Positions 5,015-31,851 of a DNA stretch of 59,057 nucleotides are shown piece by piece. The stretch lies in the IMG/VR virus record IMGVR_UViG_3300031565_000032; one strand, 5' to 3'. This stretch comes from a virus. The position numbers and the translations under genes were made by a program. A model generated the notes under the pieces. It was not told the origin of the DNA and did no database searches. It saw only the letters and a program-made list of their open reading frames with translations. The stretch's first letter is position 1. Each line of letters opens with the position of its first letter.

Positions 5015-5387
5015 TGCAGAGCAGATATTATTCGCTAAATGGCTATCGGTCCCCGGGCAGCAGAAGGGCACACAGAAAGATTTAGCAATAGAATTGGGAG
5101 TCTCTGACCAGACTTTATGCAATTGGAAGAAAGACCCCCGGATTATAGAAATAAAAAGAGAATATATAGATGCCATGGGAGACGATTTGGTCCCTGATGC
5201 TATAGAAGCTCTAAAAAAACAATTAACATCAAAGAATGAGATGGTAGCCAACAAAGCAGCTAAAGACATATTAGACAGATGGGGGCAGACAAGGCAATTA
5301 GGCAGGATAACATCTATAAAAGAGTTCTACGTATACTTAGAGAATAAGGGTAAAGTAATCGACATTACTGCCGAAGATGTGGAATGA
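4983..5387 (+). CDS. HTH DNA-binding protein resembling the phBC6A51-type / small-terminase N-terminal HTH (134 aa)
   Basis: LNAEQILFAKWLSVPGQQKGTQKDLAIELGVSDQTLCNWKKDPRI, an HTH followed by a helical tail. The terminase-small role is not established because the gene is 17.5 kb from terL. Confidence 0.5.
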   Translation: MEKLPIKRELNAEQILFAKWLSVPGQQKGTQKDLAIELGVSDQTLCNWKKDPRIIEIKREYIDAMGDDLVPDAIEALKKQLTSKNEMVANKAAKDILDRWGQTRQLGRITSIKEFYVYLENKGKVIDITAEDVE

Positions 5388-8704: not shown

Positions 8705-9133
8705 ATGGGAAAAAACAATGTAATGGGCGCAGTATCACTAACGCCAGACCGCAAGGCACGCTTTGAGAGCTTTGCGGGGTCAAGGGGTATGACTCTATCT
8801 AAGATGTTTAGGGAAGCTGCTAACTTTTACATGGAATTTGACTTCGACTTGTTTTGTATGCTCAAGGTTGTCTCCCAGGATACGGGACTCCCGATGGGTA
8901 ATATTATCGAACGCTATTGTCTGGCTTTTATGGCCGAGCTTGAGGCCGAGGACAGGGTATCCGGTGGGCGGATAAACAAAGCCATGATAGAGCTAGCCCC
9001 CGGTATGAATGCCCTTGAATTTTATAACTTCTGGCTGAAAATGAGCATACAGGAATTAAGCGATAACTTGCAAAAACAGGCCGATATCGATTCTAAGGAA
9101 GAGGTAGTGCCTAAGTATTGGAAGTCTAAATGA
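8705..9133 (+). CDS. Hypothetical protein, possibly a ribbon-helix-helix N-terminus (142 aa)
   Basis: AAGGAGTAGGTATT then ATG. SLTPDRKARFESFAGSRGMTLSKMFREAANFY resembles a CopG/RHH segment. Confidence 0.6.
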   Translation: MGKNNVMGAVSLTPDRKARFESFAGSRGMTLSKMFREAANFYMEFDFDLFCMLKVVSQDTGLPMGNIIERYCLAFMAELEAEDRVSGGRINKAMIELAPGMNALEFYNFWLKMSIQELSDNLQKQADIDSKEEVVPKYWKSK

Positions 9134-10164
9134 TAATTGACGGTAAGCATATAGGTGATGAGTGCTACGTTATAGCTGAAATAGGCCATAATCACGGAGG
9201 TAGTTTACAAACGGCCTTAGAGATGATTAAAGTAGCTAAAGAATGCGGTGCGGATGCTGTCAAGTTCCAGAAGAGGGATAACAAAACACTTTACACTAAA
9301 GAACTGTACGACTCGCCCTATGTCAATGAGAACAGTTACGGCAAGACTTACGGAGAACACCGTGAAGCACTGGAGTTTAATGATGAATACCATAAATTAC
9401 AGATATACTCTAAAGAAATCGGTATAACGATGTTCGCCACCGCCTTTGATTTTAAGAGTGCCGACTTTCTCTTTGATTTAGGTGTGCCGGCTTTCAAGAT
9501 AGCGTCCGGTGATTTAACCAACACCCCTCTATTGGAGTATGTAGCTCATTTCCAGAAACCGATGATAGTCTCCACTGGGGGAGGTACGATAACTGATGTT
9601 GTAAGAGCGTATAGCACTATTATGCCGATTAATTCTCAGTTGTGTTTCATGCAATGCACCTGTAGTTACCCCTGTGATTTTAAAGAGATGAACTTAAACG
9701 TAGTCAAGACCTATCGAGAGATATTCCCTGGTATAGTTGTAGGACTCTCCGCCCACGATAGCGGTATTGCGATGTCCTTAGTGGGTTATATGTTGGGAGC
9801 GAGAATTATAGAGAAGCATTTTACCTTAAACAGAGCCTCAAAGGGAACCGACCATGCTTTCTCCTTAGAACCTCAAGGACTCAGGAAGTTAGTACGTGAC
9901 TTAAAGAGAGCGCACTTAGCTTTAGGCGATGGTATTAAGCAATTTTACGCCAGCGAATCGAATGGTCTACGCAAGATGGGTAAGAAATTAGTGGTTTCAA
10001 GTGACTTACCGATTGGTCATACCTTAACGTATGATGATATTGCCATAAAATCTCCCAACGATGGTTTACCCCCTTATGAGATAAGTAATGTCATCGGGAA
10101 GAATACTCTCAGGGCATTAAAGGAGGATGAGAACGTCACTTTTGAGGATTTAGTAGATGGGTAG
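9130..10164 (+). CDS. neuB: NeuB-family nonulosonic (sialic) acid synthase 1, with SAF-type C-terminus (344 aa)
   Basis: YVIAEIGHNHGGSLQTALEMIKVAKECGADAVKFQKR, FKIASGDLTN, GLSAHDSGI, IIEKHFTL, GTDHAFSLEP. The YGKTYGEHREALEF segment resembles the animal-type NANS subfamily. Confidence 0.85.
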   Translation: MIIDGKHIGDECYVIAEIGHNHGGSLQTALEMIKVAKECGADAVKFQKRDNKTLYTKELYDSPYVNENSYGKTYGEHREALEFNDEYHKLQIYSKEIGITMFATAFDFKSADFLFDLGVPAFKIASGDLTNTPLLEYVAHFQKPMIVSTGGGTITDVVRAYSTIMPINSQLCFMQCTCSYPCDFKEMNLNVVKTYREIFPGIVVGLSAHDSGIAMSLVGYMLGARIIEKHFTLNRASKGTDHAFSLEPQGLRKLVRDLKRAHLALGDGIKQFYASESNGLRKMGKKLVVSSDLPIGHTLTYDDIAIKSPNDGLPPYEISNVIGKNTLRALKEDENVTFEDLVDG

Positions 10165-12181
10165 AAACTACTCGCTGTATAGAGGTACTATCCAGGTAAA
10201 TGATAATTTTAGTGTCCTTAAAACAATGCTGGATGATACAGAGGCAGCCCCCGGGATTTATAAACCTACTATTTACTGGAAGACTTATGAAAAGTTCTCT
10301 CTCCCCGAATTATTACATTTAGGATTGCATGATTTTAGGAGAAGAAAGGAAACAATCCTCTCTAAATTCGGGGCGACTGATTATAACCCGGAAATACCAA
10401 TTGATTTTAAGAAAAGCAAAATTATAGAGAAGCTGCATAATGCACAAATTAGATTAATTGACAAGGCAGTTCGTCATAGAATGAAAACCTCCGTAGATAA
10501 AGAGTCTAAACGAATAGGGGCTAAATCATTCAGGGAATTTGAAGCATCTGTAGTTGGCAACCCCGAACACGTCATTGAAATAGACGGCAAGTTGTACACC
10601 TATAAAATCCTGCATTATTACAGGCAGTATTTATATTGCTGTCGCTATATTAACTTTGATTCGGTTAAAACAATGGTTGAACTTGGCAGTGGGGCGGGGA
10701 AACAGGCCGAAGTGATTAAGAAATTGTATCCTGATATCTGTATATTGCTTTTTGATATCCCCCCTCAATTATACGTATGCCAGCAGTATTTATCTGCTGT
10801 TTTCCCTGATTGTGTAGTGCCTTACGAATCTACCAGAGAGATGACAAAGTTGCCGGAAGACCGAAGGGGTAAAATCTTCTTATTCGGGAGTCATAAATTC
10901 CCCATTCTTGATAGTATCGAGAGCGACTTATTCTGGAGTGCGTGCTCCTTTCAGGAGATGGAGCCGGAAGTGGTGGCGAATTATTTAAGCTATGTGAATC
11001 GTTCCGCGAAAACCGTTTACCTGGCTCAAATGATGGAAGGGAAGCATTTAATTTCAAAAACCCGATCCAGGGGGGTATTTAAACCCACGGTCTTTGAGGA
11101 CTACAAACGTGGGCTTTCAAATTTTAATCTATTAGATTGTTCACCAACCCCTATGGCATCATCGGATAAAGAAAGCAGTTCTTTCTGGGTGCGTAAACTA
11201 AAAGTAGACACTGAGGTTACAAAAGAAGAGAAAGTTGATTTGCAGAATAGCAGTAATGCCCTCTTAAATTGGTTTCTCCACCCGTCCGATTTAGAAGGGC
11301 ATACTCTATACATGATAGCTATGAATATCAAGGCTGCATACCATAATCTCCACATGTTTGAGGGAGAGGAAATTGAGAAAGACATCCCATCTATAGATTG
11401 GTCTAAGTATAAGGACCAAGATTACATAGAACCCTTGAAACGATTACAGCAAACGGAGAAATTAAATCACTATATATCTCATTTCATTCTACATGGGAGT
11501 CTGGCAACCCGTGATTACATTAAAGGGTGGAGTGATGTCGATGCTCTTCTGGTGATTAAAAAGGAAACGTTGGACGACCCGGGCAAATTACTTGAATTAC
11601 GAGAGTTATGTCTTGCAATGCACCCTATTCTTGGGGAAATAGACCCCTTACACCATCATGGATTGCAGTTTATTACAGAATATGATTTAGAGGCTTATCC
11701 CGATACGTTCCTACCCCCCGTTATCTTTGATTACTCCGTTTCACTCCTGGGGCAAAGTAAAATGAACCTTAGAGTAAGGGACTGTGGTGAGGAATGGTTT
11801 GTAGTATTCCATAAAATATGTGAGACCTTAAAACAAGCCTGCGAACAGGGTGAATTGAGGCATCACCCCTACAAGGGGGAGTTTCTTTTAAGCCACTTTA
11901 GAAATGATGCGATGTACCAACTCAAATATCTGCTCTCGTTAGTCATGCTGCTGCCATCCTACTATCTTGGGCTTAAAGGGAAGAGTGTTTATAAGAAATA
12001 TTCCTTTGATGCTTGCCCCAAGTTTAAGAATTGGGGAATTGTTGAGAAGGCTTCTAATATACGTAGCCTTTGGGTTGAAACAGAAGGGAACAAAATCTCT
12101 GGTTGGGTAAAGGAAATACTTGGTGAAGACTACCTGTGTGAAGCATCTAAACTGGCTGAGGAGATGAATGACCGACTTTAA
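10157..12181 (+). CDS. Two-domain protein: N-terminal class-I SAM methyltransferase-like domain (sugar O-methyltransferase-like) plus C-terminal nucleotidyltransferase-fold domain (674 aa)
   Basis: VELGSGAGKQAEVIKKLYPDICILLFDIP (GxGxG + acidic strand-2) in the N-terminal half. FILHGSLATRDYIKGWSDVDALLVI (hG[GS]x9-13D.D NTase signature) at about aa 455-480. Confidence 0.55.
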   Translation: MGRNYSLYRGTIQVNDNFSVLKTMLDDTEAAPGIYKPTIYWKTYEKFSLPELLHLGLHDFRRRKETILSKFGATDYNPEIPIDFKKSKIIEKLHNAQIRLIDKAVRHRMKTSVDKESKRIGAKSFREFEASVVGNPEHVIEIDGKLYTYKILHYYRQYLYCCRYINFDSVKTMVELGSGAGKQAEVIKKLYPDICILLFDIPPQLYVCQQYLSAVFPDCVVPYESTREMTKLPEDRRGKIFLFGSHKFPILDSIESDLFWSACSFQEMEPEVVANYLSYVNRSAKTVYLAQMMEGKHLISKTRSRGVFKPTVFEDYKRGLSNFNLLDCSPTPMASSDKESSSFWVRKLKVDTEVTKEEKVDLQNSSNALLNWFLHPSDLEGHTLYMIAMNIKAAYHNLHMFEGEEIEKDIPSIDWSKYKDQDYIEPLKRLQQTEKLNHYISHFILHGSLATRDYIKGWSDVDALLVIKKETLDDPGKLLELRELCLAMHPILGEIDPLHHHGLQFITEYDLEAYPDTFLPPVIFDYSVSLLGQSKMNLRVRDCGEEWFVVFHKICETLKQACEQGELRHHPYKGEFLLSHFRNDAMYQLKYLLSLVMLLPSYYLGLKGKSVYKKYSFDACPKFKNWGIVEKASNIRSLWVETEGNKISGWVKEILGEDYLCEASKLAEEMNDRL

Positions 12182-13037
12182 ATATCCACCTGTTTTAAGC
12201 ATGGCAGACTACATGGAGGTGATTGACTTATTCTGTCAGGACAATAGGAAAGCGAAGGCTATTTATACTATCGGCACTATAAACGACCCTGGTATCTCAG
12301 ATATTGACTTTCTGGTAGTTGATGCTGTGCCTAAAATCAGTCCGAAGGTCAGGGAATACCTTGTGGGTGGCAATGTGCTTGTTATGCCGGAATCTATGAT
12401 GAAATACATCAATTATTTGGAACGGTTTGACTTGCAGCAGGTCTGGGGTGATGAATTAGAAATTGAAAAGAACGAAAACGAATTATTTGATGCCATTGAA
12501 ATTATAGAGTGGCTTCCTGAGCGTATCTGCCTGCTGGAACATCTTAAGAGTGTCCATGATATTAGACGGACTCTATTGTATTTGAAATCAATGGATTTAA
12601 GTATCAGGAATGTTGAAAAATATCTTAATATCGCATTCCCCAGGATTAGCAATGAGGAAATCCGTAGCAATTACCGTGCTTTATCTAATGTCGTGGGTGA
12701 ATATATTAGGGTAGCGCATCAGGCGTGGGAAATGTTTGAAGAGAGAACAAACTTCTTTACAGGGGAGGTTGATGGTAGCGTGAATTTCTCCAATTATTAT
12801 ACGTTTACAAACCGATTTCCCTTGTTGATGCAATACCTGTGCTATATAACCTCAATACAGTGTAGTTTTTCACGGAGACTGAGGCGGTTCGCCCAACTAA
12901 AGGGTTATCTATCTTTCAATGACTGGGATTTAGAATGCTTGATTTCATTTCGGGTGGGCTTAATGAATGAATTATACCAGTGGTTTGTAAAGGAGAACCT
13001 TAAATCGGGGATGATTAAATATGGATGGATTCTCTAA
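12168..13037 (+). CDS. Hypothetical protein with a nucleotidyltransferase-like G..x..SDIDFLVV signature (289 aa)
   Basis: IYTIGTINDPGISDIDFLVVD near the N-terminus; 14-nt overlap with the upstream gene. Confidence 0.45.
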   Translation: MTDFKYPPVLSMADYMEVIDLFCQDNRKAKAIYTIGTINDPGISDIDFLVVDAVPKISPKVREYLVGGNVLVMPESMMKYINYLERFDLQQVWGDELEIEKNENELFDAIEIIEWLPERICLLEHLKSVHDIRRTLLYLKSMDLSIRNVEKYLNIAFPRISNEEIRSNYRALSNVVGEYIRVAHQAWEMFEERTNFFTGEVDGSVNFSNYYTFTNRFPLLMQYLCYITSIQCSFSRRLRRFAQLKGYLSFNDWDLECLISFRVGLMNELYQWFVKENLKSGMIKYGWIL

Positions 13038-13112
13038 AGAACTACGCCTGCTCGGTAGGCCAAAGGTTTTCCCATTCTGGGACAATATGATAGAAATATA
13101 TGCGGTGAAATA

Positions 13113-13937
13113 GTGATTATAGGTTGCATAAACAAAACATTCAGTAAACTACCCCGCCGGTGGAATGGTTTACACCTTGAAGACAGCCACTACTATTGTA
13201 TAATTAATCCCTGTTTTCTGCGTGGGGAGCAGAGTGTCCCCTATGCACTATTATTCGGGCAGGAAATCTTTGAGTTGATATCCGTTCACGTACCCCTTAA
13301 TTTAGGGGGTAGTGTTCTGGATGTAGGTTGTGGAGATGGTAGATTGGCCTCTGCCTTTGTCAGAGGGAATAAGAATAAATTTCATGGTATTTATGCGGGT
13401 TTTGATGTTGACCCAAATAGAATCAAGGCATTAAAACAACTACTAAGAACAAACGACAATTTTTCATTTATATATGCGGATATATTCCACCCCTACTACA
13501 ATACAAAAGGAACGATACAGCCTGATGAGTACAGGTTTGAATACCCCGATGAGAGTTTTGACCTTGTTATATTCAATTCAATTTTCACCCACATTCGGTT
13601 AAAAACAATTGAACGTAATTTAAGAGAAGCCTACCGTTGTTTAAAACCTGGAGGGAAGGTATGGGCAACATTCTATCTTATAGACCAGTTCTATAATCCC
13701 AAGTATAAAGGATTGAAATGGCACTTTAACTGGAAATGCGAAGAGGGATTTACGGCAGTACATGATACCCCTTCGTCTTGCATGGCCTATCCAATCAAAA
13801 AGGTAGGTGTTTTATGTAAGGAGATAGGCTTTTCTATTGAGAAATACATAATCGGCTATTGGAAGATAATTAGACGAACACTGGATAATACCGAGCAGGA
13901 CGTTTTGATATTAAGGAAACCAGATGGAATGGAATAA
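13113..13937 (+). CDS. Class I SAM-dependent methyltransferase (274 aa, GTG start)
   Basis: VLDVGCGDGRLA (motif I), GFDVD, DLVIFNSIFTH, LKPGGKVWATF. Confidence 0.8.
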   Translation: MIIGCINKTFSKLPRRWNGLHLEDSHYYCIINPCFLRGEQSVPYALLFGQEIFELISVHVPLNLGGSVLDVGCGDGRLASAFVRGNKNKFHGIYAGFDVDPNRIKALKQLLRTNDNFSFIYADIFHPYYNTKGTIQPDEYRFEYPDESFDLVIFNSIFTHIRLKTIERNLREAYRCLKPGGKVWATFYLIDQFYNPKYKGLKWHFNWKCEEGFTAVHDTPSSCMAYPIKKVGVLCKEIGFSIEKYIIGYWKIIRRTLDNTEQDVLILRKPDGME

Positions 13938-15267
13938 CTTAGAGTTACCATTGGCCTATTATCAGGATGATGCTGTTTATCATATTTGCGGTGATGCATT
14001 AAAGGTACTTCCCGAACTGCCGAGTGATAGCATTGACTTATTGGCTACTGACCCGCCGTATGGGATAGGGTTCATGGGGAAGGACTGGGACAAGGCGTTA
14101 CCCGATAAAAGGATATGGCAAGAATGTTTCAGGGTATTAAAGGACGGGTCGTTCGCCTTTGTGATGAGCATACCCAGAGCCGACTGTCTCTCAAGGATGA
14201 TTATAAGTTTAGAGGATGCGGGATTCATGGTGAACTTCACGCCTATCTTCTGGGCGTATGCCAGTGGATTCCCGAAGGCGCAGAATATCAGTAAAGCAGT
14301 GGATAAGAGGTTGGGGGCTGAAAGGGAAGTGGTGGGTGATGACCCCGAAGCCAAGCGAAGAAATAAAGCCACGACTAAATTTTCCAATCTCTACGGTGAT
14401 ATAAATGACTTACCCGTTATCCCCCTAACAGCTCCCGCCACTCCCCAAGCCAAAGCCCTAGACGGCAGTTATGGGGGATTCCAACCAAAACCCGCCGTTG
14501 AAATCATAATCGTGGCGATGAAGCCGTTAAGTGAAAAGACCTTTGTTGACCAGGCTCTTAGAAACAGGAAGGGTATCACGTGGCTGGATGACGGACGGAT
14601 ACCCTATGAGAGTGAAGTTGACAAAGACATACTAGAAGCAAAAGCCAGTAAGGTTTTTAGTGGCGTAAAACCTTTTGGTGGGGTTAATGGTATAGGTAGT
14701 GCCCTGAAGCCAAATAATCAAGGTCGTTTTCCAGCCAATCTCTTAGTCAGTGATGATGTACTGAATGACGGTAGGGTAACAAAGTCAACTGGCGGTAATC
14801 AGGCTAACAGAACCGATGCTATATGGGGTAATGCTAGATATTCTCCTGAGTCAAAAGGATTAGGCGACTCTGGTTCATTCTCCCGCTACTTTGATTTAGA
14901 CAAGTGGGCTGAAACACTCCCCTTTTTAATCGTACCAAAAGCCAGCAAGTCAGAGAAGAATAAATATCTTGATAAAGGAGAAACTCCATTCTTGCCATCG
15001 GGAGCATTTGAAACAAACGGCGGTGAAAAGAAACACACTTTAATGAGAAATAATCACCCCACCGTCAAGCCTCTTAAACTCATGTCCTATCTAATCATGC
15101 TAGGTTCAAGGGAAGGTGATATAGTCTTAGACCCCTTCGGCGGTTCGGGTACTACGGCACTGGCCAGCAAGCAGTTAAATCGGCGTTGCATTATCTCGGA
15201 GTTAAAAGAGCCGTATTGTGAAATCGCAGCTAAAAGATGTTCACAAAGTGTAATGAGGTTAGGATGA
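13924..15267 (+). CDS. DNA methyltransferase, N4/N6 beta-class (447 aa)
   Basis: DLLATDPPYGI (motif IV) near the N-terminus and IVLDPFGGSGTTALAS (motif I) near the C-terminus. Confidence 0.85.
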   Translation: MEWNNLELPLAYYQDDAVYHICGDALKVLPELPSDSIDLLATDPPYGIGFMGKDWDKALPDKRIWQECFRVLKDGSFAFVMSIPRADCLSRMIISLEDAGFMVNFTPIFWAYASGFPKAQNISKAVDKRLGAEREVVGDDPEAKRRNKATTKFSNLYGDINDLPVIPLTAPATPQAKALDGSYGGFQPKPAVEIIIVAMKPLSEKTFVDQALRNRKGITWLDDGRIPYESEVDKDILEAKASKVFSGVKPFGGVNGIGSALKPNNQGRFPANLLVSDDVLNDGRVTKSTGGNQANRTDAIWGNARYSPESKGLGDSGSFSRYFDLDKWAETLPFLIVPKASKSEKNKYLDKGETPFLPSGAFETNGGEKKHTLMRNNHPTVKPLKLMSYLIMLGSREGDIVLDPFGGSGTTALASKQLNRRCIISELKEPYCEIAAKRCSQSVMRLG

Positions 15268-16406: not shown

Positions 16407-17100
16407 AATGAGGTCGAAAAGGTTTAAGGGGAAGGTGCTTAAAGAGATAAGCGGTAAGCCTCTCCTGTGGCATGTTGTTAATCGTGTGCGACATTCCAAG
16501 ATTGATGATTTGGTTGTGGCTACTACCATTAATCCAGAAGACGACCCGATTGTAAGGTTTGCAGAAGAATACCATATTAAAACTTTCCGTGGTAGCGAGG
16601 AAGACGTGCTAGACCGTTTCTATCAAGCAGCCAAGAAAGTTAAGAATATCGTGCGGGTTTGCGGGGATAACCCATTGATTGACCCAGAGACAATTGATAC
16701 AGTTATTAATCTTTATGATGGATATGACTACTTTAGTAACAGAAGTTACCCCGAAGGGTTGCACGTAGAGGTCTTTTCTTTTGAAGTATTAGAGCAGGCA
16801 TGGAAGGAAGCCAAATCTTTTGAACGGGAGCATGTTACCCCATTTATTTATCATCATGACGAGCGTTTCAAGATAGGGGGCATTGTGGCGAATCTTCCCC
16901 CGATGAGATTGTGTGTAGACTATCCCTGTGATTTAGAATTAGTAAGAGAGGTCTACAAGAAGTTATGGCAGGGGGATATATTTAATACTGGTGACATCTG
17001 TCACCTATTTGAAGTTCACCCGGAATTACTGGAAATCAACAAAGGAATTCCACGGCTTGAAGGATACCATGAAAGTCAGCGTAATCATCACCTGTTATAA
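16384..17100 (+). CDS. Cytidylyltransferase, SpsF/COG1861-type (CTP_transf_3 family), 238 aa
   Basis: MLAIIQARMRSKRFKGKVLKEISGKPLLWHVVNRV...VVATT...RGSEEDVLDRF...VCGDNPLIDP. Confidence 0.8.
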   Translation: MLAIIQARMRSKRFKGKVLKEISGKPLLWHVVNRVRHSKIDDLVVATTINPEDDPIVRFAEEYHIKTFRGSEEDVLDRFYQAAKKVKNIVRVCGDNPLIDPETIDTVINLYDGYDYFSNRSYPEGLHVEVFSFEVLEQAWKEAKSFEREHVTPFIYHHDERFKIGGIVANLPPMRLCVDYPCDLELVREVYKKLWQGDIFNTGDICHLFEVHPELLEINKGIPRLEGYHESQRNHHLL

Positions 17101-17731
17101 CTTAGCGGATTATATTGACAGGGCTACACGGAGTTGCTTGAATCAGACTCTCCCGGAAGAGGAGTTTGAAGTTATAGTTGTTGACGATGCCAGCACGGAT
17201 TATAGCAGAAAAATTATTACAGGTCTTGGGCATTTTGTCAAACCGATTTTCCTGGAGAAGAATGTTGGGGTAGCTGAAGCATCTAACATCGGGATAGAAA
17301 AAGCTAAAGGTAAATACATTATTAGAGTTGATGGGGATGATTACATTAACCGGAACATACTTTTTATTATGTCGGAGATTCTTGAATGGAATGATGATAT
17401 CGGGTTCGTTTATTGCGACCAGATTAAAGTAGACGAGGGGGAAGAGAGAAGGGTTGAAATAAACACATTGGAAAAACTCTTAAATAATGGTGCTGGTGTG
17501 ATGTTCCGTAAGTCCTATCTTGAATCAATAGGATTATATGACCCCAAATTGAGAACCAGTGAAGATTATGATTTGATTCTCAGGTATATGAAGAATTTTA
17601 ACGGCTACCATTTGCGGTTGCCATATTACCGCTACTTCCAGAGGGAGGGCAGCCTAAGTAAGTCACCTGATAGGGCTACATTACAGAGTGAAATAAGGGG
17701 AAGGCAATGTCGGAATTCTTTGATAGATTAG
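17070..17731 (+). CDS. Family 2 glycosyltransferase (220 aa from ATG 17070)
   Basis: MKVSVIITCYNLADYIDRATRSCLNQTL..FEVIVVDDASTD...RVDGDD (DxD). Confidence 0.85.
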
Positions 17732-18780
17732 GGGAAAGAGCCTATATTATTGCCGAAGCTGGGGTGAATCATCTCGGCTCTCTGGAGCTTGGCGAAAGGT
17801 TAATCAGGGGGGCAAAGGAATCTGGGGCGGATGCCATAAAATTCCAAACCTATAAGGCTGAGAAGCTAACCACGAAAGATGCCCCTAGATTCTGGGATTG
17901 GGATGGTGAATGTGAAGGGTCTCAATATGACTCTTACTCACTTTTAGATTCCTTTGGCTATAAAGAGCATAAGAAGTTAAAGGAATTATGTGATAAATAC
18001 GGGATAGACTTTCTGTCTACCGCATTTGATAATGAAGCCGTTGACTACCTGGATAAGTTAGGCATGAAAGCCTTTAAGATAGCTTCTTGTGATTTAACCA
18101 ACCATCCCCTTTTAAAGTATATCGCCAAAAAGGGAAAGCCTATTTTACTATCCACCGGGGGCAGTACGATAAATGAGATTCACGAAGCCGTGGATATAAT
18201 CGAACCGATAAATAAAGAGATTGTCATTATGCACTGCACTCTATGTTATCCTACCAAAAATAAGGATGCAAATATAAATGCTATCAGTCATTTGAAGAAT
18301 GAGTTCCCCTATTTAATCGGGCTATCCGATCATACTTTGGGTATCTTAACACCTGTTATAGCCAGAACTTTAGGGGCGGTATTAATTGAGAAGCATTATA
18401 CGGTAGATAAAACTTTAGGTAAGAGCGCGGACCATTGTATATCGGTTGACACTGATGAATTAAAAAAACTTATTGAGCAGGTGAGAATATGTGAGACGCT
18501 TCTGGGGGGGAAGAAGCAAGTTGCGGATTGTGAAGTAAGAGCCAGGAAGTACGCACGGCGGAGTATCGTTTTAGCTAAAAATCTGTCAAAGGGGCGTATA
18601 CTGCGTGAAAAAGACCTGATATTTAAAAGGCCGGGGACGGGGATATCCCCCAGCCTGTTAGATGGAGTAATCGGTAAAAAAATTAACACTGATATTACCA
18701 AAGATTCTATATTGGCATGGAGTATGCTTGAAAGCGATAGAAAATATATAAACACTATAAGGATACCTTATGAGGATTAA
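17707..18780 (+). CDS. NeuB/PseI/LegI-family nonulosonic acid synthase 2, with SAF-type C-terminus (357 aa)
   Basis: YIIAEAGVNHLGSLELGERLIRGAKESGADAIKFQTYKAEKL, FKIASCDLTN, GLSDHTLG, LIEKHYT, SADHCISV. Confidence 0.85.
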   Translation: MSEFFDRLGERAYIIAEAGVNHLGSLELGERLIRGAKESGADAIKFQTYKAEKLTTKDAPRFWDWDGECEGSQYDSYSLLDSFGYKEHKKLKELCDKYGIDFLSTAFDNEAVDYLDKLGMKAFKIASCDLTNHPLLKYIAKKGKPILLSTGGSTINEIHEAVDIIEPINKEIVIMHCTLCYPTKNKDANINAISHLKNEFPYLIGLSDHTLGILTPVIARTLGAVLIEKHYTVDKTLGKSADHCISVDTDELKKLIEQVRICETLLGGKKQVADCEVRARKYARRSIVLAKNLSKGRILREKDLIFKRPGTGISPSLLDGVIGKKINTDITKDSILAWSMLESDRKYINTIRIPYED

Positions 18781-20209
18781 TGAAAAAGAAGGCGCAGAGG
18801 GAACACTATGGCGTGAATTGTGGGGAGCCTATATCGAGGCTACCAAATCCTTATGGAGTAAATTTCCCGAAGTTCTGGCCGGAGGCTTTTATCTTATTTC
18901 CCCCTATCATTCTGCTTTCGGATTAAAAACTAAAATGAGGAATTGTATTTTATTTATTCAATTCATCATATTATTCGTTCTCCACCCCTTGAAACTGAAT
19001 TTCACTTTTGACCCCTGTGATGCGGTTATATTTTGCTCTTCTACTAAACCAAGTATTCAGGAATCTATGTTACCTCTTGTAGCTCGGCTGGTAAAAAGGG
19101 GATATCGCTGCGCAGTTATCACTTCTTCCAATATGTATATATGGGTGGCTGATGTCTACCCTAAAATAAGTATTACCACTATTGTCAATTTCAGAAAGCG
19201 ATTAACCTACGGGTACAATCGGGTATCTTCATTCAAAATATTTTGCAGGGCATTATTGATAACAGCTATTTTGTATGCCCAAATCATCCGTAAACACCCC
19301 CTTGATTTTACTAAGTTACTCCACAATCCCCTTAAAGTTTTATACATGATGATGATGAGTTCCCACAAGTTGAGCGTTGCCGGCGATATACTCAGACAAC
19401 TCAAGCCCCGCCTTATGGTTACGATGCAGGAAAGGTTGCCGATTGCAGCGGAGTTGCTTTTATCTAAAGAAGCGGATAAATTCTATAAGATTCTGTATCA
19501 CTATGAAGAGCCGATGATATTCTCTGCCCCGATAATATCTCAAGAGGTTTGTGTTTGGAATCAGACAATGATAGATGAACTGTTAAAAGTCTCAGACCGA
19601 ACCCCGACTTATACTATTGTTGGGAGTCAGGAAATCAGCAATGCGCTCATAAATACTAAAGTAATTTCTAGTGGTGATAAACCTGTATTCCTTTACCTGT
19701 CACAGTTCGGGCAATTGAATGATGGTTTTACTGAGGCTCCTAGAGAAGCTATGTCATGGATAGAGTACGCGGCAAAGGAATGCAGTGATTGGTATTTTGT
19801 CATAAAGCGCAGAGCATTCCATTACGATGTGGTTGACCCTGGTGCAGAAAAACTTAAATACGATAATGTTTTCATTCCAGATGAGAAGATGGATTTTAAC
19901 CTTTGTATGCGTTGGTCTAATGTGGCTGTTGTGGGGTCTATCTATTCTATGGGGCTTTTTACTGTAGCAGGGATTGGGAAAGAATCATTTAGATTACTTG
20001 TCCCACACAGAACGAATAAACACCCTATCATTGATGAAATTTCAACCCCCGTTCATTCAAAAGAGGAGTTAGTAAAGTTGCTAAAAAACTTTACTCGTGG
20101 TAAAATATCAATGAAAGATTTAAAAGAGGATTCAAGATTCCCTTACAGGGGGCAAACTTTAAATAGAATGGAAAGTTTATGCCTGAAGCATTTAGGGAAT
20201 AAAGTATGA
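18770..20209 (+). CDS. Hypothetical 479-aa protein in the sugar island (candidate novel transferase)
   Basis: Overlaps both neighbours by 4-11 nt. Hydrophobic N-terminal segment (ILFIQFIILFVL). No family recognised by eye. Confidence 0.6.
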   Translation: MRINEKEGAEGTLWRELWGAYIEATKSLWSKFPEVLAGGFYLISPYHSAFGLKTKMRNCILFIQFIILFVLHPLKLNFTFDPCDAVIFCSSTKPSIQESMLPLVARLVKRGYRCAVITSSNMYIWVADVYPKISITTIVNFRKRLTYGYNRVSSFKIFCRALLITAILYAQIIRKHPLDFTKLLHNPLKVLYMMMMSSHKLSVAGDILRQLKPRLMVTMQERLPIAAELLLSKEADKFYKILYHYEEPMIFSAPIISQEVCVWNQTMIDELLKVSDRTPTYTIVGSQEISNALINTKVISSGDKPVFLYLSQFGQLNDGFTEAPREAMSWIEYAAKECSDWYFVIKRRAFHYDVVDPGAEKLKYDNVFIPDEKMDFNLCMRWSNVAVVGSIYSMGLFTVAGIGKESFRLLVPHRTNKHPIIDEISTPVHSKEELVKLLKNFTRGKISMKDLKEDSRFPYRGQTLNRMESLCLKHLGNKV

Positions 20210-21189
20210 AGACGATTTTAATCACAGGTATAGCAGGGTTTTTCGGGCATCATTTATTGGAGCATATTCTGAAGGATACCGATTGGAACGTTATTGGTTT
20301 AGAGGGGATAAACTATGCAGGGAATTTAGGGCGGGTTAAAGATATTGGTATCTTTACTGAAAATGAGCACCGTGTAAAGTTTGTCTGGCATGACTTACGT
20401 TCATCTTTTAATGATACAGTTATTAATCAAATAGGGCAGGTTGATTACATTGTTCACCTTGCAGCCGAGACGCATGTTGAAAGAAGTCTGATTGATTCAA
20501 GGCCATTTGTATTAAGTAACGTACTTGGGACTTGCCATCTTCTTGAATATACCAAGCACTATCAGAAGAAACTTACTAAATATATTCAATTCTCCACCGA
20601 TGAGGTTTTCGGACCCGCTCCACCTGGGGTCGATTACAAAGAATGGGACACACACAGACCATCTAACCCGTATTCCGGGGCTAAAGCCGGGGCTGATGAT
20701 TTAGCACTTTCCTTTGCGCACTCTTTCCAGATACCGATTATCATTACTCATACAATGAATATGTTTGGGGAGAGACAGCATGAGGAAAAGTTTCTGCCGA
20801 TGACAATCAAGAAAATACTCACAGGTGAGACGGTTACTATTCACGGGCAGAAGGATAGTATTAGTACCAGGAAATGGATTCATTGTAGGAATGTAGCTAA
20901 TGCGGTTACATTCTTATTGGCTAAGGGAGAGCCGGAGGATAAGTATAATATTGCGGGTGAAGAACTGGACGTTCTTAGTTTTGCCCAGTTCATATCTAAA
21001 GTTATAGGCAAGCCACTTATATATGAATTTCTGGATTTCCACGCCACCCGTCCAGGCCACGACCTCCGCTATAGTTTAGATGGTAGTAAACTTGCAAGCA
21101 TGGGTTGGAAACCCCCCATAGAGTTTCTGCCTTCATTGGAGAGGGTTATAAAATGGACACTGCAAAATAAACAATGGATAGGTCTTTAA
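20206..21189 (+). CDS. NAD-dependent sugar-nucleotide 4,6-dehydratase/epimerase (RfbB-like extended SDR), 327 aa
   Basis: ILITGIAGFFGHHL (GxxGxxG), STDEVFG, YSGAKAGADD (YxxxK). Confidence 0.85.
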   Translation: MKTILITGIAGFFGHHLLEHILKDTDWNVIGLEGINYAGNLGRVKDIGIFTENEHRVKFVWHDLRSSFNDTVINQIGQVDYIVHLAAETHVERSLIDSRPFVLSNVLGTCHLLEYTKHYQKKLTKYIQFSTDEVFGPAPPGVDYKEWDTHRPSNPYSGAKAGADDLALSFAHSFQIPIIITHTMNMFGERQHEEKFLPMTIKKILTGETVTIHGQKDSISTRKWIHCRNVANAVTFLLAKGEPEDKYNIAGEELDVLSFAQFISKVIGKPLIYEFLDFHATRPGHDLRYSLDGSKLASMGWKPPIEFLPSLERVIKWTLQNKQWIGL

Positions 21190-21196
21190 GGGGGGA

Positions 21197-21370
21197 ATGA
21201 TGAAACAGAATGTATGTGAATATCCTTGTTGGGATGGTGGGGTTTATATAGAAACTGCATGGCAAGATGATATTCGTCTGAAGAAGCGGTTCGCCGTAGA
21301 GAGGAAAGAGAAGATTGCAGCCATGAACTCTATAAAGAGATTCTTTTGGAGACTTCTTATAAATGACTAA
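21197..21370 (+). CDS. Possible small protein (57 aa)
   Basis: MMKQNVCEYPCWDGGVYIETAWQDDIRLKKRFAVERKEKIAAMNSIKRFFWRLLIND; overlaps the next start by 8 nt. Confidence 0.4.
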   Translation: MMKQNVCEYPCWDGGVYIETAWQDDIRLKKRFAVERKEKIAAMNSIKRFFWRLLIND

Positions 21371-22058
21371 TCTATTTGATTTAACTGGTAAAAAGGCAGT
21401 AGTGACTGGCGGTAAGGGTCTTTTAGCTCCTATATGGTGCGAGACTTTAAGAACGGCTGGTGCAGATGTTCATATAATAGATTTGCCAATGGATGATGTC
21501 AGGGATAGAGAGAAATTAAATTTCCTTGCTGGTCATTGGTCTCCTGTTGATATTATCGTAAACAACGCTGCCATAGACAACCCGCCGACTTCAAAAGCTA
21601 CATTCTTTGGGAACTGTAAAGAAATATTAGACGTTAATCTACAGGGTGCGGTTAATGTCTGCGAGGCTTTCATACCTTCAATGATTAAAAACGGCGGGGG
21701 AGTGATTGTAAACATAGGTTCTATTCAAGGATATGGTGGTGCTGATTACAGGAACTATCCAGAGGACTTTGAGAAACCAATAGGATACAATTTAAGTAAG
21801 TGGGGTCTAAGAGGTTTAAGTAAATCAATCTGCGTTCAATACGGTAGATACAACATACGGGCAGTCACACCGTCATTTAGTGCTTACGATGGTGGGAAGT
21901 TAGAACCTGCATTCCTAGAGAAGTTCCTGCACAATATCCCTCTTAATAGGTGTGTCTCTAAGGAGAGTCTGCAAATGACGCTCTTATATGCTGTATGCTG
22001 TCCCGAACTTACAGGCGTAGACTGGAGAGTAGATGGAGGTTTAGGCGCATGGGCGTGA
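21363..22058 (+). CDS. Short-chain dehydrogenase/reductase (231 aa)
   Basis: KAVVTGGKGLL, NNAAI, YNLSKWG (YxxxK). Confidence 0.8.
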   Translation: MTNLFDLTGKKAVVTGGKGLLAPIWCETLRTAGADVHIIDLPMDDVRDREKLNFLAGHWSPVDIIVNNAAIDNPPTSKATFFGNCKEILDVNLQGAVNVCEAFIPSMIKNGGGVIVNIGSIQGYGGADYRNYPEDFEKPIGYNLSKWGLRGLSKSICVQYGRYNIRAVTPSFSAYDGGKLEPAFLEKFLHNIPLNRCVSKESLQMTLLYAVCCPELTGVDWRVDGGLGAWA

Positions 22059-22060
22059 AA

Positions 22061-22195
22061 ATGATAAAACTACCTGTTTATAAAGATATGGATTCACCAT
22101 TAGAATATATAAGATTAGAACTTAAAGATGAAGTATGGGATAAATTAAAAGAATACGCACCTCCCCTTACAATTGTAGAGGATATAAATGACTAA
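22061..22195 (+). CDS. Possible small acidic protein (44 aa)
   Basis: MIKLPVYKDMDSPLEYIRLELKDEVWDKLKEYAPPLTIVEDIND; overlaps the next start by 8 nt. Confidence 0.4.
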   Translation: MIKLPVYKDMDSPLEYIRLELKDEVWDKLKEYAPPLTIVEDIND

Positions 22196-22892
22196 TTGTG
22201 TAGCCCTAATCCCCTGTCGCAGTGGCTCTAAGAGAATACCTGATAAGAATATTAAACTCTTAGGGGGCAATCCTCTTATTTACTGGACGATTAAAGCTGC
22301 TTTAGAGAGTAAGGTATTTGATGATGTTATAGTTTCAACCAATTCAGATAAGTACGCCGACATTGCCAGAAGCTACGGGGCTGAAGTGATAATGAGACCT
22401 GAAGAGTACGCTACTGATATATCCCCTGACATCCAATGGGTTAAATACACCTTAGACAACGTACAATCAATATCTGGGCGTTTTTATGATTGCTTTAGTA
22501 TCTTACGACCTACCTCACCTTTTCGTACACCAGAAACGATACAAAGGGCATGGCGAGAATTTACAGCACAGGAGGTAGATTCACTGAGGGCTGTAGAGAA
22601 GTGTAGCCAGCACCCTTGCAAGATGTGGCGTATTGAAAACAAATATATGATGTTACCACTATACCCAGAGATGCACAGCCAACCCTATCAGACATTACCT
22701 GAAATATATATTCAAAACGCCTCTCTTGAAATAGCATGGACTAGAGTTTTAGATAAAGATTCTATATCAGGGTTTTATGTAATGCCCTTCTTTACTCAGG
22801 GATATGGAGGCTTTGATATAAACACAGAGATGGACTGGCAGATTGCCGAGGAGTTAATACGCACTAATAAAGTGAAATTACCGATGATTTAA
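22188..22892 (+). CDS. neuA: Acylneuraminate (CMP-nonulosonate) cytidylyltransferase, NeuA-type (234 aa)
   Basis: VALIPCRSGSKRIPDKNIKLLGGNPLIYWTIKAALES...VIVSTNS...ILRPTSPFR. Confidence 0.85.
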   Translation: MTNCVALIPCRSGSKRIPDKNIKLLGGNPLIYWTIKAALESKVFDDVIVSTNSDKYADIARSYGAEVIMRPEEYATDISPDIQWVKYTLDNVQSISGRFYDCFSILRPTSPFRTPETIQRAWREFTAQEVDSLRAVEKCSQHPCKMWRIENKYMMLPLYPEMHSQPYQTLPEIYIQNASLEIAWTRVLDKDSISGFYVMPFFTQGYGGFDINTEMDWQIAEELIRTNKVKLPMI

Positions 22893-24849: not shown

Positions 24850-24867
24850 ATTTCACCTCCTATATAT

Positions 24868-24896
24868 AGTTTACATCTTTTAAGTAGAGAAGTCAA
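24868..24896 (-). promoter_or_regulatory. Sigma70-like promoter for the 24849-24266 cassette
   Basis: Minus strand TTGACT-17 nt-TAAACT, followed by ATATATAGGAGGTGAAAT and ATG. Confidence 0.55.
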
Positions 24897-25269: not shown

Positions 25270-25289
25270 TAACACGCCCATAACTGGGT

Positions 25290-25463: not shown

Positions 25464-25473
25464 CTTGTCAGAG

Positions 25474-31837: not shown

Positions 31838-31851
31838 AAAGGAGGAAACAA

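Follow-up and report, generated by a model that had tools for sequence, protein, structure and literature searches.

A predicted nonulosonic acid biosynthesis island within the packaging module of a siphovirus-type phage

Introduction

What would a small tailed phage do with genes for making and activating nonulosonic acids (NulOs), where did these genes come from, and to what would the sugars be attached? These questions are raised by a stretch of viral DNA (IMG/VR record IMGVR_UViG_3300031565_000032; 59,057 nucleotides, hereafter the window) in which such genes stand directly upstream of the large terminase gene, terL. A preliminary description of this DNA considered the arrangement "not a described system", which is too strong, as NulO genes have already been recorded in viruses and the island is not a new category. 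The Lake Biwa metagenome viral genome LBVG_26 carries neuA, neuB and neuC together with pse and pgl genes (bioRxiv 10.1101/655167), the EpaA and EpaB proteins of Acinetobacter baumannii prophages remodel pseudaminic acid (PMC12053666), and 11 IMG/VR contigs carry one of the cassettes described here. Among 50,697 GenBank phage records, a NeuB homologue occurs in only three, one of which is a Moritella contig.

Results

Genome and setting of the island

The phage genome is a complete circle of 58,930 bp, of the siphovirus type, and the 59-kb window spans all of it. It has been assembled repeatedly, in at least five assemblies. An identical NeuB1 protein is present in 16 contigs, and the five loci that we examined (from JGI, ENA and Logan) have the same gene order (5/5) and, in differing rotations, give one 58,930-bp circle. 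No integrase or repressor was recognised in the genome by Pfam/PHROG-type searches. An NT5C-type deoxynucleotidase gene lies at 51132 and an MT-A70 gene at 51850. The island, approximately a quarter of the phage DNA, consists of 13 co-oriented, mostly overlapping genes between a DNA methylase gene (7023) and terL (22892). The flanking features are:

4983..5387, + strand: terS-like HTH protein, left border of the packaging module (PF13022 HTH_Tnp_1_2, 4e-9)
7023..8441, + strand: DNA N6/N4 methyltransferase of the phage backbone (PF01555, 6e-18)
8705..9133, + strand: 142-aa ORF with a 4-nt ATGA overlap into NeuB1 (no Pfam/PHROG match)
22892..24316, + strand: large terminase terL, right border, with a TAATG overlap (~72% identical to terL of relatives L002-L005)

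The assignment of terL is borne out by tblastn matches to annotated terminases. The terS-like protein has a homologue in relatives L002 and L004, encoded by the ORF that immediately precedes terL. Its gene abuts terL in relatives and lies 17.5 kb upstream of terL in the island phage, which places the island within the packaging module. All 80 terL relatives (80/80), including the four at ~72% identity (L002-L005), lack the island.

The preliminary description had proposed start/stop overlaps at nearly every junction, and we counted 11: 4 nt at 9130, 8 at 10157, 14 at 12168, 14 at 13924, 4 at 15264, 23 at 16384, 32 at 17069, 25 at 17707, 11 at 18770, 4 at 20206, and 1 nt (TAATG) at terL. The only gaps are 13037/13113 (75 nt), 21189/21363 (173 nt) and 22058/22188 (129 nt). 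The ORF coordinates were likewise correct with one exception, the GT2 gene, which starts at 17069 and not at 17070. Placing the island in the same operon as the structural genes went further than the data allow: promoter and terminator scans were at chance level, and a single late transcript is not assured because leftward ORFs, together with a tRNA, occupy a 2.2-kb stretch between terL and the portal gene.

The uniqueness of the island among relatives and the incompleteness of its pathway (see below) would also fit passenger DNA that plays no role in the phage, either captured recently without being functional or joined to the genome by chimeric assembly. We give this reading a negligible probability, given the constant gene order in 5/5 loci of one 58,930-bp circle and the tight start/stop overlaps of ORFs that are all intact. 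Moreover, GC and GC3 of the island are the same as those of the phage backbone, to which they have ameliorated, and phage-specific fusions (NanM::NT-A) and rearrangements argue for residence and selection in the phage.

Branch A pairs NeuB1 with a distal cytidylyltransferase

Searches against Pfam and NCBIfam upheld the family calls made earlier: two NeuB-family synthases, two CTP_transf_3 cytidylyltransferases (CTs) of different subtypes, a GT2, an RfbB-like dehydratase, an SDR, two sugar/SAM methyltransferases and two NTase-fold proteins, with a backbone DNA methylase mid-island. The NCBIfam equivalog cut-off is reached by neither synthase. Three genes make up the first branch:

9130..10164, + strand: NeuB1, NANS-type nonulosonate synthase (Pfam NeuB, 8e-76, and SAF)
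21363..22058, + strand: classical SDR oxidoreductase, paired with CT 22188 (adh_short, 5e-20)
22188..22892, + strand: cytidylyltransferase 2, NeuA-like, predicted cognate activase of NeuB1 (CTP_transf_3, 7e-25)

Two peptides quoted previously as typical of the animal NANS branch, YGKTYGEHREALEF and GTDHAFSLEPQGLRKLV, are both in ORF 9130, and by sequence comparison NeuB1 is indeed a member of this branch. It matches a human NANS sequence, entered by hand, with 290 bits and 41% identity, as compared to 186 bits for the second synthase, and groups with that same NANS sequence at 87% bootstrap in a neighbor-joining tree. NeuB1 is 66-75% identical to a large cellular clade, whose genes are followed by those for a HAD (KdsC-like) phosphatase, an SDR and a CT. 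Within this cellular cassette, adjacent genes encode the counterparts of NeuB1 (68-75% identity) and of CT 22188 (59-61%, in L088 and L089). Thus, the two synthase/activase pairs that had been proposed do not follow gene position: by homology, NeuB1 goes with the distal CT 22188. The SDR is 26-28% identical to the SDR of the cellular cassette and 60% identical to an SDR adjoining a CT in L172.

NeuB1 probably forms a 9-phosphate product, and the phage has no KdsC-type phosphatase for this branch. The phosphorylated route through Kdn-9-P or Neu5Ac-9-P is documented for B. thetaiotaomicron, human and Prymnesium parvum, and in P. parvum a dedicated phosphatase was likewise not found (PMC6200933). 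The grouping of NeuB1 with NANS and the synthase-phosphatase-activase logic of its cellular orthologues resemble this route. The differences are the missing phosphatase of the phage and the additional SDR and transketolase-like genes of the cellular cassette, which suggest a further-modified sugar.

Branch B is a copy of a six-gene cellular cassette

The second branch comprises the following genes:

10157..12181, + strand: NanM-type sugar O-methyltransferase (aa 34-291) fused to an NTase-fold domain, NT-A (aa ~360-670) (TIGR04371; NTP_transf_2)
12168..13037, + strand: NT-B, second NTase-motif protein of the cassette (GISDIDF motif visible; no Pfam match)
15264..16406, + strand: X, predicted NodB/CE4-like deacetylase-fold protein with a C-terminal beta-sandwich (AF2/Foldseek)
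16384..17100, + strand: cytidylyltransferase 1, SpsF/COG1861-like (CTP_transf_3, 3e-34)
17069..17731, + strand: small soluble GT2 glycosyltransferase of the cassette (Glycos_transf_2, 8e-28)
17707..18780, + strand: NeuB2, nonulosonate synthase of a clade without a characterised member (NeuB, 1e-79, and SAF)

The series NT-A/NT-B/X/CT/GT2/NeuB2 is syntenic in Dehalococcoidia, Saccharibacteria and Actinomycetota MAGs and in the 11 IMG/VR contigs. Gene order is the same in L091, L092-L094 and these contigs, at 30-70% identity, and cassettes of this type are found in ordinary cellular glycan loci. NeuB2 is 56-64% identical to its L091/L092 counterparts, scores below the NeuB and PseI equivalog cut-offs, and falls in a clade (100% bootstrap) apart from PseI, SpsE and NmNeuB of the PDB. 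The cassette GT2 is 55-70% identical to those of L091, L092 and L175-L185. CT 16384 is 33-41% identical to the CT adjoining X and NeuB2-type genes (Actinomycetota L095-L101; L091) and is presumed, from this similarity, to be the activase for the NeuB2 product. The N-terminal half of ORF 10157 scores above the cut-off of TIGR04371 (3e-58), and its C-terminal half has a weak NTase fold (NTP_transf_2, 0.002). The NT-A profile matches the CdnD NTase core (1.4e-4), and NT-A homologues take the same cassette position in L090, L091, L093, L094 and L175-L185. NT-B is 22-43% identical to the ORF immediately 5' of X in L090-L094 and L175-L185.

ORF 15264 (X), previously regarded as unplaceable, is firmly predicted to have a deacetylase fold, and its gene is a conserved companion of those for NeuB and CMP-transferases. 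Its AF2 model (pLDDT 93.8) has polysaccharide deacetylases 3qbu, 1z7a, 3s6o and 5z34 as best Foldseek matches (TM 0.4-0.54). Fusions to GNAT or SAM-MT occur among the 139 homologues of the family, and most of 80 genome loci, across phyla, have NeuB and/or a CT within 10 kb.

By sequence, the island is therefore a mosaic of two captured pre-existing cellular cassettes (A and B), inserted between terS and terL, and not an ad hoc gene set. The cellular source loci are surface-glycan loci with GT4, PMT and pyruvyl-transferase genes.

Remaining island genes and the possibility of DNA modification

Four genes complete the island:

13113..13937, + strand: class-I SAM-dependent methyltransferase (Methyltransf_11/25/23, 4e-15)
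13924..15267, + strand: DNA N6/N4 methyltransferase of the phage backbone, interrupting the island (PF01555, 1e-28)
18770..20209, + strand: 479-aa rare protein, tentatively GT-B (glycosyltransferase or NeuC/2-epimerase-like; weak Foldseek matches)
20206..21189, + strand: RfbB-like NDP-hexose 4,6-dehydratase, extended SDR (GDP_Man_Dehyd, 9e-48)

ORF 18770, the other ORF that had been left unplaced, has only three homologues among 5.8e9 proteins. In both contexts that were recovered (P0002 and P0004) the gene is closely followed by one for an NDP-sugar dehydratase/epimerase, with no gene between them in one case and a DUF268 gene between them in the other. Its AF2 model is poor (pLDDT 52), and the top Foldseek matches are mostly GT-B proteins (BshA, NeuC, UDP-GlcNAc 2-epimerases; TM <= 0.38), which tentatively suggests a GT-B fold. 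The dehydratase scores 248 bits with the dTDP-glucose 4,6-dehydratase model TIGR01181, below its 365 cut-off.

The methylase at 13924-15267, which the earlier account did not spell out, is 56% identical at its C-terminus to a methylase of the island-less relative L004. A location among three DNA methylases, two of which flank or interrupt the island (7023, 13924) and one of which is the MT-A70 protein, would fit attachment of the sugars to phage DNA as a hypermodification against restriction. The NT5C-type enzyme and two NTase-fold proteins without an assigned substrate are also compatible with this. We nevertheless judge it very unlikely, since no hydroxymethylase, thymidylate-synthase-like enzyme, DNA glycosyltransferase or base-excision-type transferase was found in the phage, the same cassette occurs in cellular glycan loci without DNA-modification genes, and relatives carry DNA methylases without the island.

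A candidate NulO transferase in the head module

Outside the region covered by the preliminary description, we identified the following genes:

31493..32199, + strand: two tandem paralogous head-module proteins, 114/115 aa, immediately 5' of the GT42::GT2 gene
32221..33837, + strand: bifunctional protein with an N-terminal Cst-II/GT42-like domain and a C-terminal GT2, candidate NulO transferase (profile search)

ORF 32221 lies between capsid and head-tail adaptor genes, has no counterpart in relative L005, and is likely, from its domain matches, to be a NulO transferase. Campylobacter Cst-II/Cst-I (GT42) are the only significant PDB matches of its N-domain family profile (8e-7 to 3e-3). The match is limited to two CMP-binding Rossmann motifs: no alignment was obtained around the catalytic His188 and, by eye, the Arg129 equivalent is not conserved. 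The N-domain family consists mostly of ~185-aa stand-alone proteins and is absent from Pfam and PHROGs. A stand-alone homologue is encoded in a different phage-like structural region, and L172 has a homologue 4 kb away from an SDR-CT pair that resembles 21363/22188. The GT2 domain (aa 293-402, 2.8e-19) matches the PHROG "GtrB-like O-antigen conversion" family. This two-transferase architecture recalls bifunctional capsule polymerases, which combine hexosyl- and sialyl-transferases; unlike in the hexose/NulO co-polymerases, the partner domain here is GT2 and not GT4. The 114/115-aa paralogues are 72% identical to each other, have no counterpart in any terL relative, and could, speculatively, be acceptors or decoration proteins.

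Discussion

We tentatively favor, at a little short of an even chance, the reading that the island makes two CMP-activated NulOs whose acceptors are phage head proteins, such that the virion is glycosylated late in infection. We infer substrates, products, timing and acceptor as follows. NeuB1 would join PEP to a hexose phosphate, which could be Man-6-P, with Kdn-9-P as the product, or ManNAc-6-P, and the 9-phosphate would be cleaved off by a phosphatase of the host or by a promiscuous one. The SDR may re-tailor this sugar, and CT 22188 would activate it with CTP. In branch B, the viral copy of an uncharacterised bacterial cassette, NeuB2 would produce the second NulO from a 6-deoxy or amino hexose of host origin, a precursor that dehydratase 20206 and ORF 18770 (GT-B-like) may help to feed. 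This product would be tailored by X, with its deacetylase fold, and by both methyltransferases, and activated by CT 16384. For the transfer of the activated sugars the phage would use glycosyltransferases that it encodes itself, namely the GT2 of the cassette and the Cst-II-like::GT2 protein. As expected from the preliminary description, domain searches found no aminotransferase, acetyltransferase or canonical 2-epimerase in the phage.

A virion acceptor is suggested by the position of the transferase gene between capsid and head-tail adaptor genes, its absence from L005 and the lack of a recognised integrase. Morons that target the host envelope are common inside late operons as well, so gene position is weak evidence for the acceptor, and GT2 acceptors are often polyprenol-linked or polysaccharide. 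The same island could supply CMP-NulOs for remodelling the host surface (S-layer or flagellin glycan, capsule, LPS or wall polymer) in the course of infection or of carriage. As in classical glycan conversion by phages, this would block superinfection or prevent the debris of lysed cells from trapping progeny. We regard this as only slightly less likely than a virion acceptor. It would agree with the adjacent SDR-CT pair, conserved in L172, with the GtrB-like match of ORF 32221, with the origin of the cassettes in surface-glycan loci, and with the incomplete pathway, from which it would follow that the host already makes related precursors. The Lake Biwa authors also read viral neuABC clusters as host-surface remodelling. 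It is harder to reconcile with a likely NulO transferase in the head module, with an island between terS and terL and not in an attachment-site-proximal moron position, and with the failure to recognise an integrase or repressor or to see a flippase, polymerase or polyprenol-phosphate transferase.

Known systems bear on both readings. Like LBVG_26, the island phage is a tailed virus with a NeuB synthase and a CMP-transferase, with function read from annotation alone in both. It differs in having two synthase/activase branches (one NANS-type, one a six-gene cassette without a characterised member), in lacking NeuC, aminotransferase and acetyltransferase, and in being a small 59-kb siphovirus with its island in the terS-terL module and a Cst-II-like::GT2 protein in the head module. 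Likewise, EpaA/EpaB are a phage-borne CTP_transf_3 and SDR that act on a nonulosonic acid and need host precursors, comparable to CT 22188 and SDR 21363. However, they only epimerise a host-made sugar, from integrated prophages, and alter the capsule, whereas the island phage adds synthases, methyltransferases and transferases and has no integrase found. Apart from the domains that they have in common, the two pairs are probably not significantly related in sequence.

Freeman et al. (2023) reportedly showed that the capsid and tail proteins of mycobacteriophages are glycosylated by enzymes that these phages encode; such decoration is said to be proposed or shown for Che8, Corndog and Myrna. 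These phages are said to use host nucleotide sugars and simple hexoses, whereas the island phage, judged from its genes, would supply its own CMP-nonulosonates. PMC11256854 alludes to mycobacteriophage virion glycosylation. Given that a sialyltransferase-like enzyme is encoded among its head genes, NulOs may serve this phage as a coat for its own particles or for its host.

A complete circular genome of a siphovirus-type phage

The window is an entire JGI contig (3300031673|Ga0307377_10000392) that carries an exact 127-bp direct repeat at its ends (1-127 is identical to 58931-59057). We found the same genome in ENA assemblies of other samples, as 59,071-bp contigs whose rotations differ. Subtracting 127 from 59,057 gives 58,930 bp, as does subtracting 141 from 59,071, the figure of 141 being read as a k-mer size from the contig names (k141_) and not measured as an overlap; both lengths thus resolve to one 58,930-bp circle, indicating a complete circular assembly. 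An identical copy of the protein encoded by ORF 9130 (NeuB1) is present on 16 contigs, and gene order is the same in all five of the loci examined among them (JGI, ENA and Logan).

Pfam and PHROG scans revealed portal (PF04860), prohead protease, HK97-type capsid, major tail protein and tape-measure genes and no sheath gene, indicating a siphovirus-type tailed phage. Genes on the + strand span 4634 to about 47100, and the remainder are leftward and early-type, including YopX, an exonuclease, an NT5C nucleotidase and an MT-A70 methylase. Among about 55 scanned ORFs, we recognized no integrase or recombinase domain and no endolysin, and a tRNA was the sole match in an Rfam scan. The DNA methyltransferases, distal tail genes and further early genes are as follows.

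7023-8441, + strand, DNA methyltransferase, N6/N4 type
13924-15267, + strand, DNA methyltransferase, N6/N4 type, inside the island
43394-46162, 922-aa distal tail protein with a DUF2341 domain
46172-46711, HNH endonuclease, following the distal tail gene
50420-51097, - strand, DUF5131 protein among the early genes
51132-51707, - strand, NT5C-type HAD 5'-deoxynucleotidase, the sole HAD-fold enzyme in the genome
51850-52413, - strand, DNA methyltransferase, MT-A70

The presence of three DNA methyltransferases in a 59-kb genome suggests a heavy investment in anti-restriction. The 922-aa tail protein, whose DUF2341 domain we take to be LamG/concanavalin-like, is likely the receptor-binding protein. 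A DNA-level search among GenBank phages found no close relatives, and the top GenBank match to TerL, from Methanosarcinales virus BK063673.1, is just 33% identical. The host may be an archaeon; the nearest donors of the island are Dehalococcoidia, Saccharibacteria and Actinomycetota MAGs.

The island lies within the packaging block

The 13.8-kb island makes up 23% of the genome, and its GC and GC3 contents (0.407 and 0.415) are similar to those of the backbone (0.435 and 0.397). Its genes are found in none of 80 IMG/VR loci with relatives of terL, four of which are ~72% identical. In these relatives, a small HTH protein is encoded immediately 5' of terL; its homologue in the phage (4983-5387, PF13022) lies 17.5 kb 5' of terL, indicating that the methylases and the glycan island split terS from terL. 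This displacement bears out the preliminary description, which had placed the island in the packaging block. The island is co-oriented and contiguous with terS and terL in a late-operon layout with coupled start/stop junctions, and when we recomputed these junctions we obtained the same overlaps between island genes as originally described. It is unlikely that the island is junk DNA.

Beyond terL, a 2.2-kb insertion (24317-26492) separates terL from the portal gene, two genes that adjoin in relatives, and breaks the otherwise rightward late block. It contains the following features.

Within 24317-26492, three small leftward ORFs, one of which is an HNH endonuclease (25544-25828)
25010-25097, tRNA-Leu(UAA)

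Scans for consensus sigma-70 promoters and intrinsic terminators returned matches at chance level. Given these chance-level signals and the leftward ORFs and tRNA 3' of terL, co-transcription of the island with the head genes is putative.

Gene content of the island

All of the ORFs named in the preliminary description are present, with one correction: the GT2 gene starts at 17069 rather than 17070. The two proposed NeuB synthases are recognized as such by Pfam and NCBIfam, with NeuB (PF03102) and SAF domains that score above the Pfam gathering score in both NeuB1 (255 and 29 bits) and ORF 17707, or NeuB2 (268 and 38 bits). Likewise, both proposed cytidylyltransferases match CTP_transf_3 (PF02348) above the gathering score, ORF 16384 with 119 bits and ORF 22188 with 89 bits; the NCBIfam equivalog scores of ORF 16384 (KdsB, 52-73 bits; PseF, 29 bits) are all under cut-off. 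Pfam and NCBIfam also agree with the families assigned to the GT2 (17069), the RfbB-like extended-SDR dehydratase (20206) and the classical SDR (21363). The two SAM methyltransferases were correctly called as well, ORF 13113 being class-I and the N-terminal half of ORF 10157 being a NanM-type sugar O-methyltransferase that scores above the curated cut-off. ORF 13924-15267, which had gone unidentified, is the DNA N6/N4 methylase listed within the island, and its C-terminus shares 56% identity with the methylase of a relative that has no island, indicating that it is a backbone gene lodged within the island.

A NANS-type synthase and its cytidylyltransferase

The island is a mosaic drawn from two cassettes of cellular type, one with NeuB1 and the other with NeuB2. 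NeuB1 falls in a large cellular clade of closely conserved proteins, to which it is 66-75% identical. Two cellular loci of this type (L088 and L089) share the order NeuB1-type synthase, KdsC-like HAD phosphatase, SDR, (aldehyde dehydrogenase), CTP_transf_3 and transketolase/DXP-synthase-like gene, the phosphatase immediately 3' of the synthase being a Hydrolase_3 protein. FrhB-like and DUF2206 genes are further features of L088, the source of the closest NeuB1 orthologue; its GC content is ~40%, and together with the TerL match these features make an archaeal host conceivable. The transketolase-like member hints at an unusual and possibly chain-modified nonulosonate in bacteria; we found no literature on a cassette of this type with such a gene. 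CT 22188 shares 59-61% identity with the cytidylyltransferase of the cellular cassette, and the corresponding value for the SDRs (21363 in the phage) is 26-28%. The match of the cytidylyltransferase indicates that NeuB1 and CT 22188, encoded at opposite ends of the island, are a cognate pair.

NeuB1 had been read as an animal-type NANS, and this reading is upheld. Against a human NANS sequence that did not come from a database record, the score of NeuB1 is 290 bits, with 41% identity over its full length, and that of NeuB2 is 186 bits. In a neighbor-joining tree, NeuB1 groups with its L088 and L089 orthologues with 100% bootstrap, or 87% once this human NANS sequence joins, and PDB entry 1wvo, the SAF domain of NANS and the sole NANS fragment in the PDB, matches NeuB1 and not NeuB2. 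Together with the phosphatase that adjoins the cellular orthologues, these observations support a prediction that NeuB1 is a NANS-type synthase using a 6-phosphorylated hexose, which would be Man-6-P or ManNAc-6-P. Neither synthase reaches the cut-off of TIGR03569 (NeuB/NnaB equivalog, 399.65 bits; NeuB1 288, NeuB2 343) or of TIGR03586 (PseI equivalog, 340.25 bits; NeuB1 240, NeuB2 282).

The earlier claim that the pathway is incomplete is correct. Using Pfam on about 55 ORFs and tblastn with L088 and L091 enzymes, we detected no PLP aminotransferase, N-acetyltransferase, aldo-keto reductase or radical-SAM protein, and the DegT, Aminotran_3 and AKR proteins of L091 gave no tblastn match in the phage. 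The scanned ORFs are without the aminotransferase, N-acetyltransferase and 2-epimerase/nucleotidase domains of a complete canonical Pse/Leg/Neu5Ac pathway. A route from Man-6-P to Kdn skips the aminotransferase, acetyltransferase and epimerase, and so would account for part of this apparent incompleteness. Nor did tblastn with the L088 enzymes find phage counterparts of three further members of the cellular NeuB1-type cassette, its KdsC-type phosphatase, its transketolase and its aldehyde dehydrogenase. The characterised P. parvum pathway is likewise without a dedicated phosphatase, and redundant phosphatases have been invoked (PMC6200933). That the NT5C nucleotidase stands in for the missing NulO-9-P phosphatase is pure speculation.

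A six-gene cassette shared with cellular genomes and marine contigs classed as viral

NeuB2 belongs to a cassette with two nucleotidyltransferase-type proteins (NT-A, the C-terminal half of ORF 10157, and NT-B, ORF 12168), X (ORF 15264), CT 16384, which we propose to be the activase paired with NeuB2, and the GT2. The order NT-A, NT-B, X, cytidylyltransferase, GT2, NeuB is found in locus L091, in L092 (a Dehalococcoidia MAG) and in a pair of MAGs from Saccharibacteria that have no adjoining GT2, and phage positions 10157-18780 match this order at 30-70% identity. Actinomycetota MAGs have the order GT2-NeuB-CT-X, with a cytidylyltransferase of the 16384 type. Pol-beta-type NTase motifs are found in NT-B and in NT-A, the phage version of which is fused to the O-methyltransferase. 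In the neighbor-joining tree, NeuB2 and its L091 and L092 orthologues form a clade with 100% bootstrap, apart from PDB PseI (8h2c), SpsE and meningococcal NeuB. IMG/VR scans using single island proteins gave no matches; 11 IMG/VR contigs (L175-L185, 36-235 kb, from marine samples and classed as viral, for example IMGVR_UViG_3300025141_000034) carry the six-gene cassette in the same order at 30-70% identity. These contigs also have extra methyltransferases, GT4s and a UDP-glucose dehydrogenase, and their flanks are mostly ORFans. A PHROG scan of the flanks of one marine cassette-bearing contig (L187) found one exonuclease and nothing else.

Pfam gave nothing useful at E-values up to 10 for X, NT-B, ORF 18770 or the N-terminal domain of ORF 32221. 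X has 139 homologues without a Pfam domain, some of them fused to GNAT or SAM-MT domains. Of 80 genome loci that represent many phyla, with Helicobacter, Treponema, Roseburia and Magnetospirillum among them, most have a NeuB and/or CMP-type cytidylyltransferase gene no more than 10 kb from the X-family gene. As modelled with AF2 (pLDDT 93.8), X looks like a NodB/CE4 polysaccharide deacetylase with an added beta-sandwich, and its best Foldseek matches are 3qbu, 1z7a, 3s6o, 3cl6 and 5z34 (probability 0.99-1.0, TM 0.4-0.54). From structural resemblance alone, X is predicted to have a deacetylase-like beta/alpha barrel fold.

ORF 18770 has just three homologues among 5.8 billion proteins. In both of the contexts that we recovered, an NDP-sugar dehydratase/epimerase is encoded just 3', as in the phage, adjoining directly in one and following a DUF268 gene in the other. 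The phage dehydratase (20206) has a clear extended-SDR dehydratase fold (GDP_Man_Dehyd, 164 bits) and, at 248 bits, does not reach the cut-off of the RfbB equivalog TIGR01181 (365.1 bits). A profile of the ORF 18770 family had no match among PDB sequences. Its AF2 model, built from four sequences, is poor (pLDDT 52), and the best-ranked Foldseek matches of that model are mostly GT-B proteins (BshA, NeuC and UDP-GlcNAc 2-epimerases). These matches tentatively suggest that ORF 18770 may be a transferase or may supply the hydrolysing epimerase that is otherwise missing.

A sialyltransferase-like enzyme among the head genes

A candidate transferase for nonulosonic acids (NulOs) is encoded outside the island. 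Its gene is preceded by the capsid gene, a gene for a decoration-like 164-aa protein and two paralogues, and is followed by the head-tail adaptor gene.

31493-31837 and 31852-32199, tandem paralogues of 114/115 aa, 72% identical, directly 5' of ORF 32221
32221-33837, + strand, candidate NulO transferase (Cst-II-like::GT2), 538 aa, head module

The tandem paralogues, which are absent in all terL relatives, may be decoration proteins or glycan acceptors. ORF 32221 is likewise not found in L005, a terL relative that covers that region. A GT2 domain (2.8e-19) forms the C-terminal half of ORF 32221, and the first 290 residues match nothing in Pfam or PHROGs. An exhaustive search recruited 1,958 cluster representatives of this N-terminal domain. 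When a profile of 50 homologues was compared with the PDB, the sole significant matches were Campylobacter GT42 sialyltransferases, namely Cst-II (2drj, 1ro8, 1ro7 and 2x61; E-values of 8e-7 to 1e-5) and Cst-I (2p2v; 3e-3), with the next unrelated match at 0.34. The Cst-II match spans two CMP-binding motifs. The alignment ends at about Cst-II residue 165, leaving the region of the catalytic base His188 unaligned; a G-[IV]-D motif and a nearby Tyr are present, and an equivalent of Arg129 is absent. The significant profile matches indicate that the N-terminal domain is homologous to the CMP-NulO-binding Rossmann domain of GT42.

An unrelated 7.4-kb contig (L172; ENA ERZ25074855 NODE_10889) encodes an SDR fragment and a cytidylyltransferase 60-65% identical to 21363 and 22188. 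Next come five ORFan genes, then a two-domain homologue of ORF 32221 (45% identity), located 4 kb 3' of the SDR-CT pair, and a radical-SAM gene. This independent genomic linkage ties ORF 32221 to the NeuB1 branch. A stand-alone homologue is located in another phage-like structural region.

Possible acceptors of the sugars

In the mechanism that we propose, the phage would supply two CMP-nonulosonate branches that draw on central metabolites and intermediates of the host. The sugars would be tailored by O-methylation, deacetylation or re-acylation, and redox or epimerisation steps, and would then be transferred by the phage's own GT2 and Cst-II-like::GT2 enzymes. As acceptor, we narrowly and tentatively favor virion head proteins, since an insertion specific to this phage places the transferase among head genes, the island sits in the packaging block and lysogeny genes were not seen among the scanned ORFs. 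Nearly as likely is that the CMP-NulOs serve to remodel the host surface, a reading that has the sole experimental precedent, the prophage proteins EpaA/EpaB (PMC12053666). Addition of the sugars to phage DNA as a hypermodification is unlikely. The proposal in its entirety, that a small siphovirus makes its own CMP-nonulosonates, that its Cst-II-like::GT2 enzyme caps virion proteins and that the six-gene cassette is an undescribed nonulosonate pathway, is possible and, taken as a whole, doubtful.

Relation to other viral glycan genes and implications

NeuB is very rare among deposited phage genomes, being found in 3 of 50,697 records, and X and the two-domain transferase are found in none of them. 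Our search for literature on characterised phage NulO synthesis found annotation-level reports and EpaAB and nothing further. Viral neuABC clusters are known from metagenomes (bioRxiv 10.1101/655167). Given these earlier reports and the 11 cassette-bearing IMG/VR contigs, the island is an unusually rich variant within virus-borne glycan-biosynthesis islands and not a new category. Its novelty lies in having two branches, a route of the NANS type, a cassette yet to be characterised and, among the head genes, a sialyltransferase-like enzyme.

As surface signals and as receptors for phages, nonulosonic acids are of key importance. As a test case, the genome is compact, complete and repeatedly assembled, and it has two directly expressible synthase/activase pairs. 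It also draws attention to a NulO cassette of six genes conserved across Dehalococcoidia, Saccharibacteria and Actinomycetota MAGs and the 11 IMG/VR contigs, and to a newly recognized family, with about 2,000 representatives of a Cst-II-like domain, that lies outside Pfam and PHROGs. Should the acceptor be the host surface, the island would represent an unusually large investment in receptor remodelling for a seemingly non-temperate phage. If instead the virion is the acceptor, particle glycosylation would extend from hexoses to sialic-like sugars, with a bearing on adhesion, escape from host-receptor trapping and recognition by predators or immune systems, and a phage whose virion proteins are capped in this way would be the first "sialylated" bacteriophage particle.
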